From the IMG/VR virus record IMGVR_UViG_2627853844_000002: a stretch of 19,945 nucleotides of DNA. The stretch is one strand, 5' to 3'. This DNA is from a virus. Its lineage: Duplodnaviria > Heunggongvirae > Uroviricota > Caudoviricetes. A program made the position numbers and the translations under genes. Each line of letters starts with the position of its first letter. The stretch's first letter is position 1. Below the pieces are notes generated by a model that ran no database searches, had not been told where the DNA came from, and worked only from the letters and a program-made list of their open reading frames with translations. Below, in pieces: positions 175 through 16,637 of the stretch.

Positions 175-227
175 GGGCGGCAGAGCAGTCACGGAGTAAA
201 ACTGATACCGCCAAACGTCACCAGAAA
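175..227 (-). ncRNA. dicF: DicF small RNA (53 nt; antisense regulator of ftsZ and other targets)
   Basis: Reverse complement of 175-227 reads UUUCUGGUGACGUUUGGCGGUAUCAGUUUUACUCCGUGACUGCUCUGCCGCCC, matching the DicF sequence as I recall it, followed by a U-run terminator tail (plus-strand A-run 171-174). Confidence 0.85.
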
Positions 228-567
228 ATTGATAACAGAGGGCGTTGCAGCGGGGTTGTCACTTAAGCGTATGGTCAACCTGACAACCCGGTGTCCTCAA
301 CGGGGAAGGAATAACCCCGCCATACTTACCGCCGCGCCATTTCGCGGGTTGCCACAACCGGAAGCGCACGGTCGACGAAAATTTAACGACAGGCTATCTA
401 TGAACCAGCTACCTCGCCATGCGCTTTCGCGTTATGGTCTGACTTTTCAGGGAAATATCCTTTCAGTAAACTGTCAGTTCCGGATGCGCACCCGTGTCCG
501 GCGCACGCACTCCACCTCACCCGTGGAGAACTCCTTAATTACTAACCTTAGCTTTGTTGATTAGCTA

Positions 568-786
568 CTAACGCGGGTATGTAATCATTCTGGCAATGCT
601 TAATGCCGCTGCTTTTTCCAGATTGGTGATATCCTGCTCCAGAGCGAACAGATTTTCAGCCTGCTTAGCCCTGGCTTCATTAGCCCATTTCAGATCCTGC
701 GCTGCATTAATTTTCTGGCGCATCCACTCATAAAGTTCATCATCGGTATAGTCTGGCGCGATGATGACGGGTTCTCGTTTCTGCAT
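568..786 (-). CDS. ydfC: Qin prophage protein YdfC (72 aa)
   Basis: ORF track translation MQKREPVIIAPDYTDDELYEWMRQKINAAQ... recognised as YdfC; position upstream of dicF in the dicB operon. Confidence 0.8.
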   Translation of the reverse strand: MQKREPVIIAPDYTDDELYEWMRQKINAAQDLKWANEARAKQAENLFALEQDITNLEKAAALSIARMITYPR

Positions 787-945: not shown

Positions 946-1101
946 TCACTCACCTGAGTTTCTTTCCAGCCAGCGACGGGCACCATTTTCGGTTTTAAAC
1001 GTTTTGCTTTTGGTATACGTCATTGCGGTGAACGTGCCGTCCTGGTTTGGAAACACGCCGTACACCAGAGATTCGTTGTTGCCAAGATCGATAGTATCCA
1101 T
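946..1101 (-). CDS. ydfA: Small protein YdfA (51 aa)
   Basis: Internal Met of ORF 946..1179 gives MDTIDLGNNESLVYGVFPNQDGTFTAMTYTKSKTFKTENGARRWLERNSGE (51 aa), first gene of the dicB operon. Confidence 0.75.
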   Translation of the reverse strand: MDTIDLGNNESLVYGVFPNQDGTFTAMTYTKSKTFKTENGARRWLERNSGE

Positions 1102-1267
1102 GCTGACCTCATTTCCCCTTAACGCTGGGGTAGCGGAACTGTTTGCTGAGAACACCGTGCGGTGTGTTGATGCAAACAAGATTAGCCATGACTAACATAT
1201 CGGTCAAGTGATTTTGTATGCTATAGCTAACATAATTGATGTGGTAAAAGATAACTCATTGATGATG
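1102..1267 (-). promoter_or_regulatory. dicB-operon promoter region with candidate DicA operator dyads (TTAGCCATGACTAA at 1182-1195; TAGCTA at 1223-1228)
   Basis: Near-palindromes sharing the TTAG/CTAA half-site with those in the dicA-dicC intergenic region; lies between the dicA stop and the ydfA start. Confidence 0.4.
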
Positions 1268-1675
1268 TTATCTTTTATTTGTCCGCTGACGGGCTTTTAG
1301 TAATTCTTCAAAGAGTTTATTGAAGTTTTTTACTCGAGCTCGCATTTCGGCGAGCTGGGTATCCTGTTCTGATTCTGGCAGTGCATTAAACAGCTCAAGG
1401 AGCTCTAGTTCTTTGGGGGATAAGGCAACTGGCTTCTCAACAGGTGGTGTTGGTTGCTTGTCTTCATCGCCAAATAGAATCCATGTTGGTGAGCATTGCA
1501 ATACTTTACTGAGGGCAAAAAGGTTCTTCCCTGTAGGTTCACTATCACCCCGTTCCCATTGTGATACAGACACATGGGAGATTTTCAGGGCTTTAGCAAG
1601 AGACCTTTGGGTGTGTTTGAGGTTTTTCCGACGATACCTGATGCGTTCGCCGATAGTTAAATTTTTTGTTTCCAT
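1268..1675 (-). CDS. dicA: DicA, HTH (XRE-family) repressor of the division-inhibition operon (135 aa)
   Basis: ORF translation METKNLTIGERIRYRRKNLKHTQRSLAKALKISHVSVSQWERG... has a classic HTH; divergent from dicC. Confidence 0.9.
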   Translation of the reverse strand: METKNLTIGERIRYRRKNLKHTQRSLAKALKISHVSVSQWERGDSEPTGKNLFALSKVLQCSPTWILFGDEDKQPTPPVEKPVALSPKELELLELFNALPESEQDTQLAEMRARVKNFNKLFEELLKARQRTNKR

Positions 1676-1758
1676 AGTTAGCTAATGCTAAATCGTATTG
1701 ACTATGTTTTTGTTAACATCTATCTTGTTAGTTATGACTAACAATAAAGGTGTTTTAA
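1676..1758. promoter_or_regulatory. dicA-dicC divergent promoter/operator region with three dyad-symmetric elements
   Basis: TTAGC-TAAT-GCTAA (1678-1691), TGTTAACA (1714-1721) and TTGTTAGT-TATG-ACTAACAA (1726-1745), all within 83 bp between the divergent repressor and Cro-like gene; cI/cro-like architecture. Confidence 0.55.
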
Positions 1759-1989
1759 ATGCTTAAAACTGACGCTCTTTTGTATTTCGGTTCAAAAACA
1801 AAACTTGCACAAGCAGCAGGTATTCGTTTGGCTTCGCTTTATAGCTGGAAAGGGGATTTAGTTCCCGAAGGTCGCGCGATGCGTCTACAGGAGGCATCTG
1901 GCGGGGAGCTTCAGTATGATCCCAAAGTTTATGATGAATATCGTAAGACGAAGCGGGCGGGGCGGTTGAACAATGAAAATCACTCCTGA
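1759..1989 (+). CDS. dicC: DicC, Cro-like regulator (76 aa)
   Basis: ORF translation MLKTDALLYFGSKTKLAQAAGIRLASLYSWKGDLVPEGRAMRLQEASGGELQYD...; divergent from dicA. Confidence 0.85.
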   Translation: MLKTDALLYFGSKTKLAQAAGIRLASLYSWKGDLVPEGRAMRLQEASGGELQYDPKVYDEYRKTKRAGRLNNENHS

Positions 1990-2263
1990 ACAGGCTCGTG
2001 AGGCTCTGGATGCCTGGATATGTCGACCAGGAATGACACAGGAGCAGGCGACGATATTAATCACTGAAGCATTCTGGGCTTTGAAAGAGCGCCCGAACAT
2101 CGATGTTCAGCGTGTCACATATGAAGGTGGCGCGATTGATCAGCGAGCGCTTGGCGTTAATCGAGTGAAGATATTTGAACGCTGGAAGGCTATCGACACC
2201 AGGGATAAGCGTGAAAAGTTCACGGCGCTAGTGCCTGCAATTATGGAGGCTACCACTGGATGA
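1973..2263 (+). CDS. ydfX: Qin prophage protein YdfX (96 aa); overlaps the dicC 3' end by 17 nt
   Basis: ORF translation MKITPEQAREALDAWICRPGMTQEQ...; position immediately after dicC. Confidence 0.65.
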   Translation: MKITPEQAREALDAWICRPGMTQEQATILITEAFWALKERPNIDVQRVTYEGGAIDQRALGVNRVKIFERWKAIDTRDKREKFTALVPAIMEATTG

Positions 2264-7754: not shown

Positions 7755-8054
7755 AAAAATTCCTTAATACTGATAACTTGGCGCACTATACACACGTTCC
7801 TGAAGAAAGCTATAGTTTTTTGATGGGGTTGAAGATGGCTGGATGTCTAAAATAAACATTGCTTCATATGTTCAACTATGCGTTAATGATTGCGTCGGTT
7901 TGAAGAACAGACGATATACGAAGTAGTTTACTAAAGCAGTTCTCATTTCAGGTGTTATTCACTTATTCCTTCTTTGAGTCTCTCCAATTAAGTACGAAGT
8001 CGTTTCTGTTATGCAAACCATTTATGCCGAAAGGCTCAAGTTAAGGAATGTAGA

Positions 8055-8270
8055 ATGTCAAATAAAATGACTGGTTTAGTAAAATGGTTTAACGCTGATA
8101 AAGGTTTCGGCTTTATTTCTCCTGTTGATGGTAGTAAAGATGTGTTTGTGCATTTTTCTGCGATTCAGAATGATAATTATCGAACCTTATTTGAAGGTCA
8201 AAAGGTTACCTTCTCTATAGAGAGTGGTGCTAAAGGTCCTGCAGCAGCAAATGTCATCATTACTGATTAA
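8055..8270 (+). CDS. cspB: Cold-shock protein CspB (71 aa)
   Basis: ORF translation [71 protein letters not shown]. Confidence 0.95.
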
Positions 8271-8381
8271 AATTCATCGCTCGTCTGTATACGATAACGA
8301 AGAAGGCTGATGCCTGAGTAGAGATACGGACAGAGTAGTGAATATTGGATCTCTTTAATAAAAAGTAAGGAGGTCCAATAC

Positions 8382-10579: not shown

Positions 10580-10941
10580 GGTAATATTAAATCGGAACAT
10601 TTACATCGCGGAATGTAAAATTTAAATAAAAAGGACTCTTCCATGAGCCAAAATTCCTGAAATCTTAAGGGTAAGATAAAAGGTCTTAATCAGAATGACA
10701 CGTTTTATTAATAAATAAAGCTATTCTTTCATTGCTGTGTTTTTCTTTACAAAAGTAATCCTTGCTATGGGTGGTTAATCATGCGTTAATGGTGTTCTGG
10801 TTTGTTACAAATTTATCTGAAGCAGTCATTGTTATAATTTTATTATTTGTACCTCTTGAGATTTCCTTGTTGGTTTTTCTCTCTGATATTTTTTTTCGGA
10901 CCATTCTGCCCAAGGGCTAATTTCTTCAAAAGGTAATAATT

Positions 10942-11154
10942 ATGTCTAACAAAATGACTGGTTTAGTGAAATGGTTTAACCCTGAAAAAGGTTTTGGTTT
11001 CATCACGCCGAAAGATGGCAGCAAAGATGTGTTTGTCCATTTCTCAGCAATTCAGAGCAACGATTTCAAAACATTAACTGAGAATCAGGAAGTTGAATTT
11101 GGTATTGAGAACGGACCTAAAGGTCCTGCCGCTGTTCATGTAGTGGCGCTTTGA
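10942..11154 (+). CDS. cspI: Cold-shock protein CspI (70 aa)
   Basis: ORF translation [70 protein letters not shown]. Confidence 0.95.
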
Positions 11155-11353
11155 GGTAGACAATATTACAAACCATATTCACTTTAGATGCCCGTGTTGT
11201 CATGGTTCCCAGTATAGAACATCATCTTTTGATGTTTCTGACATGAATCCTTTCGGGGCAAAATGTATCTTTTGTAAATCAATGATGATTACATTTGATA
11301 ATATTTCACAATACTTAAATGCCAGCCGTCTGTCGTTGGATTTAAAAAAGTGA
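11144..11353 (+). pseudogene. Zinc-ribbon-like reading frame (paralog of the 8634..8804 ORF) lacking any canonical in-frame start before its first Cys cluster; only the C-terminal 36 codons (ATG 11243) are conventionally translatable
   Basis: Frame +1 relative to cspI reads ...FRCPCCHGSQYRTSSFDVSDMNPFGAKCIFCKSMMITFDNISQYLNASRLSLDLKK*; an ATG at 11188 is out of frame by one nucleotide (ATG CCC GTG ... stops after 9 codons). Confidence 0.35.
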
Positions 11354-12598: not shown

Positions 12599-12644
12599 CT
12601 GATGAATCCCCTAATGATTTTGGTAAAAATCATTAAGTTAAGGT

Positions 12645-12713
12645 GGATACACATCTTGTCATATGATCAAATGGTTTCGCGAAAAATCAATAATCAGACA
12701 ACAAGATGTGCGA
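12645..12713 (-). ncRNA. IS10 antisense RNA-OUT (from pOUT; represses transposase translation); coordinates approximate
   Basis: Placed from established IS10 organisation (RNA-OUT covering roughly IS10 nt 47-115, overlapping the transposase start at nt 108); not derived independently from the sequence. Confidence 0.5.
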
Positions 12714-16062: not shown

Positions 16063-16637
16063 TGGCATTCAGAATGAGTGAACAACCACGGACCATAAAA
16101 ATTTATAATCTGCTGGCCGGAACTAATGAATTTATTGGTGAAGGTGATGCATATATTCCGCCTCATACAGGTCTGCCAGCAAACAGTACCGATATTGCAC
16201 CGCCAGATATTCCGGCTGGCTTCGTGGCTGTTTTCAACAGTGATGAGTCATCGTGGCATCTCGTTGAAGATCATCGGGGTAAAACGGTTTATGACGTGGC
16301 TTCCGGCGACGCGTTATTTATTTCTGAACTCGGTCCGTTACCGGAAAATGTTACCTGGTTATCGCCGGAAGGGGAGTTTCAGAAGTGGAACGGCACAGCC
16401 TGGGTGAAGGATACGGAAGCAGAAAAACTGTTCCGGATCCGGGAGGCGGAAGAAACAAAAAACAACCTGATGCAGGTAGCCAGTGAGCATATTGCGCCGC
16501 TTCAGGATGCTGCAGATCTGGAAATTGCAACGGAGGAAGAAATCTCGTTGCTGGAAGCATGGAAAAAGTATCGGGTATTGCTGAACCGTGTTGATACGTC
16601 AACTGCACAGGATATTGAATGGCCAGCACTGCCGTAG
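16062..16637 (+). CDS. tfaQ: Tail-fibre assembly protein (191 aa)
   Basis: ORF translation [78 protein letters not shown]...; start overlaps the stf stop. Confidence 0.85.

Follow-up and report, generated by a model that had tools for sequence, protein, structure and literature searches.

We consider that the prophage Qin has both control regions of its P22-type immunity module within positions 1102-1758, where DicA and DicC act on shared dyads, and we give this reading a probability of about 0.85. Positions refer to the window, that is, the whole stretch of 19,945 bp that was analysed. The first-pass annotation had already read the repeated dyads as multiple DicA/DicC operators at two promoters. 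This interpretation is correct and was already known, since the layout has been in the literature since 1988, when Béjar gave Oa, Om, and Oc their names and pointed out the likeness of the locus to immunity regions of lambdoid phages (cited in PMC3441716 and PMC10448788). What is added here are exact coordinates for the predicted sites at the dicB promoter (dicBp), whose location is unknown according to Reg-Seq (PMC7567609), comparative evidence for four good sites in K-12, and the fast evolution of the operator centres. The residual novelty lies in the mapping of the two dicBp sites (OB1 and OB2), in the finding that Om is degenerate, in a probable terminator, and in the polymorphism of the operator centres, which may be new.

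The Locus and Its Proteins

The region of the window was 100% identical to the cryptic lambdoid prophage Qin of E. coli K-12 MG1655, and the orientation of the window is the reverse of the usual Qin map. The genes are as follows.

175-226, minus strand: DicF small RNA (Rfam)
568-786, minus strand: ydfC
between ydfC and ydfA in gene order: ydfB
946-1101, minus strand: ydfA
1268-1675, minus strand: dicA, 135-aa repressor with an HTH_3 domain and without an S24 peptidase domain (start codon 1673-1675, stop codon 1268-1270)
1759-1989, plus strand: dicC, Cro-like regulator (Pfam P22_Cro)
past dicC: truncated ydfX, then flxA, ydfV, and relBE

The genes dicA and dicC are divergent and the spacer between them has 83 bp. 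The K-12 version of the immunity region was also found, with 99.7% identity, in PhiR42_1 from the phages collection. At the position of ydfX, which in K-12 is truncated to 96 aa and annotated as incomplete (window 1973-2263), this phage has a 173-aa gene annotated cII (L249, 3372-3893). When 5,426 complete E. coli genomes were searched, 3,983 had matches to the immunity region, the median being 2 places per genome and the maximum 9, so that several prophages may share one small pool of DicA. A 2.5-kb contig of a Collinsella MAG (L003, JAIIUG010000151.1) also encodes a DicA of 99% identity, flanked by DNA of the E. coli type, and is probably mis-binned E. coli sequence. Elsewhere in the window, the Rfam matches at 7894-8286, 10796-11181, 12644-12713, and 16405-16603 comprise two cspA-type thermoregulator leaders, the RNA-OUT antisense RNA, and an IS009 RNA.

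DicA matched only HTH-type families in Pfam (HTH_3, 1.3e-16; Phage_CI_repr, 7.5e-6). Its N-terminal domain was aligned to that of P22 C2 over residues 7-71 (E = 8e-20), and the P22 C2 structures solved with operator DNA matched the same domain with E = 1e-19 to 1e-20. The S24 peptidase domain, responsible for RecA-stimulated self-cleavage, gave no Pfam match in the 135 residues of DicA, in agreement with the antirepressor control described for this protein (PMC10448788). DicC matched P22_Cro with 1.7e-11 and 44.1 bits, the cut-off being 30.2 bits. The dicA locus works as a lambdoid switch, yet DicA is not a SOS-cleavable CI.

Operators and Promoters

The control elements of both regions are listed below; dicCp is the dicC promoter.

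1725-1744: Oc, perfect 8+4+8 dyad of 20 bp, TTGTTAGTtatgACTAACAA, that is TTGTTAGTTATGACTAACAA (core 1728-1741)
1703-1716: Om position, TATGTTTTTGTTAA, three core mismatches, in the dicCp spacer
1675-1694: Oa, core 1678-1691, TTAGCtaatGCTAA / TTAGCTAATGCTAA, including the 8-bp palindrome TTAGCTAA
1698-1726, plus strand: dicCp, -35 TTGACT 1698-1703, 17-nt spacer, -10 TATCTT 1721-1726 (promoter scan)
1179-1198: OB1, core 1182-1195, TTAGCcatgACTAA / TTAGCCATGACTAA, in the dicBp spacer and overlapping the -10
1214-1233: OB2, core 1217-1230, TATGCtataGCTAA, just upstream of the dicBp -35
1179-1207, minus strand: predicted dicBp core promoter, -35 TTGACC 1207-1202, 17-nt spacer, -10 TAATCT 1184-1179

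Considering that the short half-site words were at chance level in the window (TGTTAG, 10 versus 9.2 expected; TAGCTA, 3 versus 3.1; TTAG-N6-CTAA with one mismatch allowed, 5 versus 8.0), we used as evidence the full dyad and a position weight matrix (PWM). The full dyad TTAGY-N4-RCTAA (TTAGYNNNNRCTAA) had exactly three matches in the 19,945 bp, all of them inside 1102-1758. From shuffled sequences 0.08 matches were expected, and none of 200 shuffles reached three. The full dyad and its placement are therefore non-random, while the short words alone are at chance; the half-site search over the window proposed in the first-pass annotation gave a signal in the former and none in the latter. The PWM was trained only on the sites of diverged relatives, the K-12-like alleles being left out, and it detected four outstanding sites in the window: Oc (24.9 bits, rank 1), OB1 (24.5 bits, rank 2), OB2 (20.1 bits, rank 3), and Oa (17.1 bits, rank 4). 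The next best match had 5.2 bits. On this basis we predict four, rather than six, good sites in K-12.

Between dicA and dicC, the three palindromic elements that had been noticed earlier were all present (1725-1744, 1678-1691, and 1711-1718). As operators they are not equivalent, since Oc and Oa match the consensus of the family and Om, taken in register, reaches only 0.8 bits (rank 18) in K-12. The third palindrome, TGTTAACA at 1711-1718, is contained in Om, and the distance from Om is exactly 25 bp both to Oa and to Oc. Oc spans from -8 to +12 of dicCp. Taking into account the 5'RACE and the -11 A of PMC3441716, together with the DicA site annotated at -8 to +12 of this promoter (bioRxiv 10.1101/2025.05.13.653802), the dicCp start would be at about 1733 and the site at 1725-1744. 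Relative to dicCp, Oa immediately precedes the -35, Om occupies the spacer, and Oc lies over the start site. Oa also adjoins the dicA start codon, and its centre, CATTAG, is conserved and nonpalindromic.

At dicBp, the half-sites noticed upstream of ydfA proved to belong to the dyads OB1 and OB2, except that TAGCTA is not a separate motif or half-site; it forms part of Oa and OB2. One half of OB2 is perfect (GCTAACA) and the other is imperfect, with TATG replacing TTAG. The promoter itself fell under the threshold of the promoter scan because its -10 matches the consensus in only 3 of 6 positions; its start, read from the sequence, is predicted near 1171-1173, and the positions of the -35 and -10 are kept in the Citrobacter and Serratia loci. 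Three operators are mentioned for dicBp in PMC10448788, versus the two sites found by us: apart from these two, nothing in the dicA-ydfA spacer scored above -5.2 with the PWM, and no third site was consistent in the relatives.

The transcript of ydfA-dicF-dicB would have a leader of about 71 nt (1102-1172, minus strand), with an invariant GTTCCGC and a small hairpin, CGCY-N5-RGCG, whose 4-bp stem has one weakly covarying pair. A second, upstream hairpin in the leader differs in sequence between lineages. The leader had no Rfam match and its fold was not significant (z = -1.5). A resemblance to the HK022 put (putL/putR) RNA was also considered and rejected, the best local alignments scoring 31-34 versus a mean of 35.7 for shuffled leaders.

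Upstream of dicF, a full DicA/DicC site was sought and discarded: the best score was -5.4 and only an isolated half-site was seen near 557. This good operator half-site belongs to a cluster of TTAG/CTAA words without a full dyad (ACTAACCTTAGCTTTGTTGATTAGCTACTAAC, window 538-575), located just downstream of the ydfC stop codon, and the cluster may have to do with a weak ChIP peak that has been reported for DicC on the upstream side of dicF.

Conservation of the Dyads

Homologues of DicA with their flanks were gathered from IMG/VR and GTDB genomes, and a site was counted as conserved when it matched TTAG-N6-CTAA with at most one mismatch. About 20 distinct repressor alleles, with 64-92% identity and including those of Citrobacter and Serratia, had sites centred at -59 and -9 from the ATG, and nearly all of them had two further sites, 35-36 bp apart, downstream of the repressor stop codon. 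In this downstream pair the distal site, counterpart of OB1, was perfect and the proximal one, counterpart of OB2, was usually imperfect. Conservation in homologous immunity regions, on which the first-pass annotation had made its reading depend in part, was thus observed over a wide range of repressor divergence.

In four of the diverged alleles (L139, L159, L129, and L092) there was an extra site with one mismatch at -34, the position of Om, giving three operators 25 bp apart at -59, -34, and -9; the K-12 spacer has two consensus sites with a degenerate middle one. Judged by its sequence, Om in K-12 is a degenerate operator remnant that in some relatives is near the consensus. Two more distant loci (L006 and L007, with repressors of 53% and 32% identity) had no TTAG dyads and a different architecture, for which reason they are uninformative. 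At short distance we compared 41 haplotypes of an 861-bp segment from near-identical Qin-like prophages, and the TTAG/CTAA cores were essentially invariant while the neighbouring bases varied.

The phage mEp460 (L248, LR597641, 1200-1900) provides a natural exchange. Its repressor has 17% identity to DicA over the HTH half and 49% over the C-terminal half, and its Cro has a different N-terminus. On the ydfA side, the flanking DNA that both loci have in common is almost the same. At the equivalent places of both promoters there are TTGAG-N4-CTCAA dyads and no TTAG dyads. Since the HTH and the dyads change together, operators and recognition domains swap as a unit, as in an immunity module. The OR/OL-like layout at two promoters, already put forward in the earlier annotation, is supported by the PWM sites at both promoters, by their fixed positions in about 20 alleles, and by this swap.

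Roles of DicA and DicC

According to Yun (2012), DicA binds Oc both in vivo and in EMSA with crude extracts, a single A-to-C change in Oc abolishes the binding, and expression of dicC is repressed by DicA while that of dicA is activated; no binding of DicA in vivo was seen with Oa or Om in isolation, a result stated as data not shown, and His-DicA is described as mostly insoluble (PMC3441716). Reg-Seq also recovers the DicA site at dicCp and lists the location of the dicB site as unknown (PMC7567609), and the selection against intact Oc on plasmids has been attributed to titration of DicA (bioRxiv 10.1101/2025.05.13.653802). Oc is the main DicA operator. Ragunathan (2023) described that dicBp is repressed by DicA, that the repression is relieved by the antirepressor Rem, and that the system is bistable (PMC10448788). 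It had been proposed from the layout that the repressor would control both its own expression and the division-inhibition operon, and the two published effects, activation of dicA (PMC3441716) and repression of dicBp (PMC10448788), agree with it. For DicC, the strongest ChIP-seq signal was at this locus; binding sites were inferred to flank dicA on both sides, the motif being the palindrome TT(A/C/T)G...C(G/A/T)AA, and DicC represses dicA 48- to 84-fold (PMC11430063).

In the mechanism that we propose, dimers of DicA and of the Cro-like DicC would recognise TGTTAG-YYATRR-CTAACA, with four good copies in K-12. The outer TTAG/CTAA bases are presumably contacted, and the readout of the central hexamer is probably indirect, as homology to P22 C2 and 434 suggests. 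DicA on Oc, a site that takes in the dicCp start and the end of the -10, would block dicC and stimulate dicA, which is the step already demonstrated in the literature. DicC, and perhaps DicA in excess, would shut off dicA through Oa, in a manner like that of lambda OR3; we infer that Oa is the preferred DicC site. At the other end, DicA on OB1 and OB2 would exclude RNA polymerase and silence ydfABC-dicF-dicB, the repression being published and the exact sites being our prediction.

It is possible, if doubtful, that the dyads are divided between both proteins instead of shared, Oc, OB1, and OB2 with their palindromic YYATRR centres being the DicA sites and Oa, with the asymmetric CATTAG, overlapping the dicA promoter and serving in essence DicC alone. 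The failure of Oa to bind DicA (PMC3441716) points in this direction, and so do the conservation and asymmetry of its centre, while the other three centres vary, and the strong repression of dicA by DicC with its main ChIP peak here (PMC11430063). Nevertheless, Oa and Oc are 50 bp apart and are not separated at ChIP resolution, Oc and OB1 also fit the DicC motif, and a DicC site was inferred on the dicBp side as well; moreover, the conservation of the Oa centre may stem from its overlap with dicA promoter or translation-start signals.

That Oc alone works, the remaining dyads (Oa, Om, OB1, and OB2) being relics of the ancestral phage in K-12, seems to us improbable. Qin is decaying, as seen in the truncated ydfX, Om is degenerate, and neither Oa nor Om bound DicA in vivo (PMC3441716), all of which would fit such relics. 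Relics would not be expected, however, to keep invariant or nearly invariant cores in Oa, OB1, and OB2 among 41 haplotypes in which the neighbouring bases vary, nor positions fixed in about 20 diverged alleles. The strong repression of dicBp by DicA (PMC10448788) also needs a site, for which OB1 and OB2 are the sole candidates, the DicC sites were inferred on both sides of dicA (PMC11430063), and the same region is carried with 99.7% identity by the phage PhiR42_1. We retain shared dyads at both promoters as the preferred reading.

The Stop-Codon Hairpin

The following element lies between dicA and dicBp.

1245-1277, minus strand: A/T-rich hairpin, perfectly complementary 11-nt arms at 1245-1255 and 1267-1277

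The earlier description of a 10-bp hairpin overlapping the dicA stop codon was right in that the right arm covers this codon and was off by one in the left coordinate, the 10-mers being at 1246-1255 and 1267-1276. Folded as RNA on the dicA sense strand, the hairpin had -11.6 kcal/mol and z = -4.96, and none of 200 shuffles was as good. In K-12 it has few G-C pairs and ends in UUUU (U4), missing the terminator criteria of the scan. In the alleles with 93% identity, ATC/TGA is changed to GCA/TGC on both arms and three pairs are added, resulting in a 13-bp stem with a 5-nt loop and U5. No such hairpin was found at the Citrobacter and Serratia loci. By analogy with lambda t_imm, it is probably not an operator but a weak intrinsic terminator of dicA, which would most likely end dicA transcription before dicBp and so shield this promoter from read-through. 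Next to it, on the plus strand at 1281-1294, there is a terminator-like stem, GTCCGCTGACGGGC, followed by TTTT and antisense to the dicA 3' end.

The stop-codon hairpin, being a perfect inverted repeat of 11 bp between dicA and dicBp, could also be taken as a protein-binding dyad or as the third dicBp operator, in view of the three operators mentioned in PMC10448788. We regard this as very improbable: the sequence is unlike the operator consensus (PWM -5.7), the arms do not abut but are separated by 11 bp, the changes on both arms in the 93% alleles keep and extend the pairing of an RNA or DNA stem, and the Citrobacter and Serratia loci retain both operators yet lack the hairpin. Finally, that the palindromes are due to chance in A/T-rich intergenic DNA, as the lack of enrichment of TGTTAG, TAGCTA, and one-mismatch TTAG-N6-CTAA in the window might suggest, can be dismissed in view of the full-dyad excess (3 versus 0.08), the PWM scores (17-25 versus 5 bits), the conservation, the mEp460 module swap, and the published binding (PMC3441716).

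Polymorphism of the Operator Centres

The 41 haplotypes were also used to study the central YYATRR hexamers, located as follows.

1732-1737: centre of Oc
1186-1191: centre of OB1
1221-1226: centre of OB2

The four YY/RR positions around the central AT of these three operators were highly polymorphic, with transitions only, and the centre hexamer of Oa was identical in 40 of the 41 haplotypes. The centres that occur in nature include TCATAA, TCATGA, CCATGG, and CCATAA. A minor-allele frequency of at least 10% was observed in 10 of the 12 centre positions versus 41 of 186 third-codon positions (Fisher p = 2.7e-5). Among pairs of sites no more than 6 bp apart, 11 of 18 had all four allele combinations, versus 9 of 72 control pairs, and such four-gamete violations at so short a distance point to recurrent mutation and not to recombination. 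A tree-based homoplasy test (3.9 versus 0.5 steps) was discounted because the tree had been built from the comparison sites; the tree-free tests given above were used in its place, and they still support the effect on the centres, more modestly. Template switching at quasi-palindromes was considered and rejected, since symmetric Oc centres were seen in 11 of 41 haplotypes and about 13 were predicted from independent allele frequencies, with no excess.

The variation of the centres may reflect selection on affinity via indirect readout, or a mutational hotspot. We put forward only tentatively, as the less probable side of the question, that the YYATRR centres of three of the four DicA operators are fast-evolving affinity dials.

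Comparison with Other Immunity Systems

One of the closest known systems is immC of P22, which also has divergent genes for C2- and Cro-type proteins, operators overlapping both promoters, a second operator set at the leftward promoter downstream of the repressor gene, and dyads with a 14-bp core and a 4-bp centre. The P22 operator has the form TTAAG-N4-CTTAA. Its half-site is thus TTAAG instead of the TTAGY of Qin, and since the half-sites differ, Qin and P22 would be heteroimmune. By comparison with P22 C2, the 135-aa DicA has a different C-terminal domain, without the S24 self-cleavage domain, and by comparison with P22 the K-12 Qin has a degenerate middle operator and only two sites at the PL-like promoter. 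In Qin, the outer, presumably contacted bases of the operators are invariant and the centre varies only within a pyrimidine/purine pattern, which resembles the indirect readout of noncontacted central bases by the 434 repressor and P22 C2 (PDB 2r1j and 3jxb-d). The link of DicA to the indirect readout of these repressors is drawn purely by analogy, DicA being homologous to the protein in the P22 C2 structures.

As in lambda, the repressor shuts off the cro-type gene and stimulates its own expression (PMC3441716), the Cro-like protein DicC acts in turn as a repressor of dicA (PMC11430063, PMC6915034), and the switching is bistable (PMC10448788). Also shared are an ancestral operator spacing of about 25 bp and a hairpin between the repressor gene and the PL-like promoter (compare t_imm). 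On the other hand, the lambda operators have no sequence homology to those of Qin, and lambda is induced by RecA cleavage whereas Qin is induced by the antirepressor Rem (PMC10448788). With about 60 bp between the centre of Oc and the dicA ATG, the geometry of the activation need not equal that of CI at OR2. In its induction DicA would be analogous to the Gifsy GfoR/GfhR type, that is, a short noncleavable repressor which is removed from its operators by an antirepressor (PMC10448788).

Conclusions

The dyads are the published repressor-binding sites that keep the cell-division-inhibitor genes of Qin off. If the operator centres were indeed affinity dials, selection on the strength of the operators would seem to be still under way. 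Such tuning may be explained by the approximately 20-25 DicA molecules per cell being common to several co-resident prophages and easily titrated.
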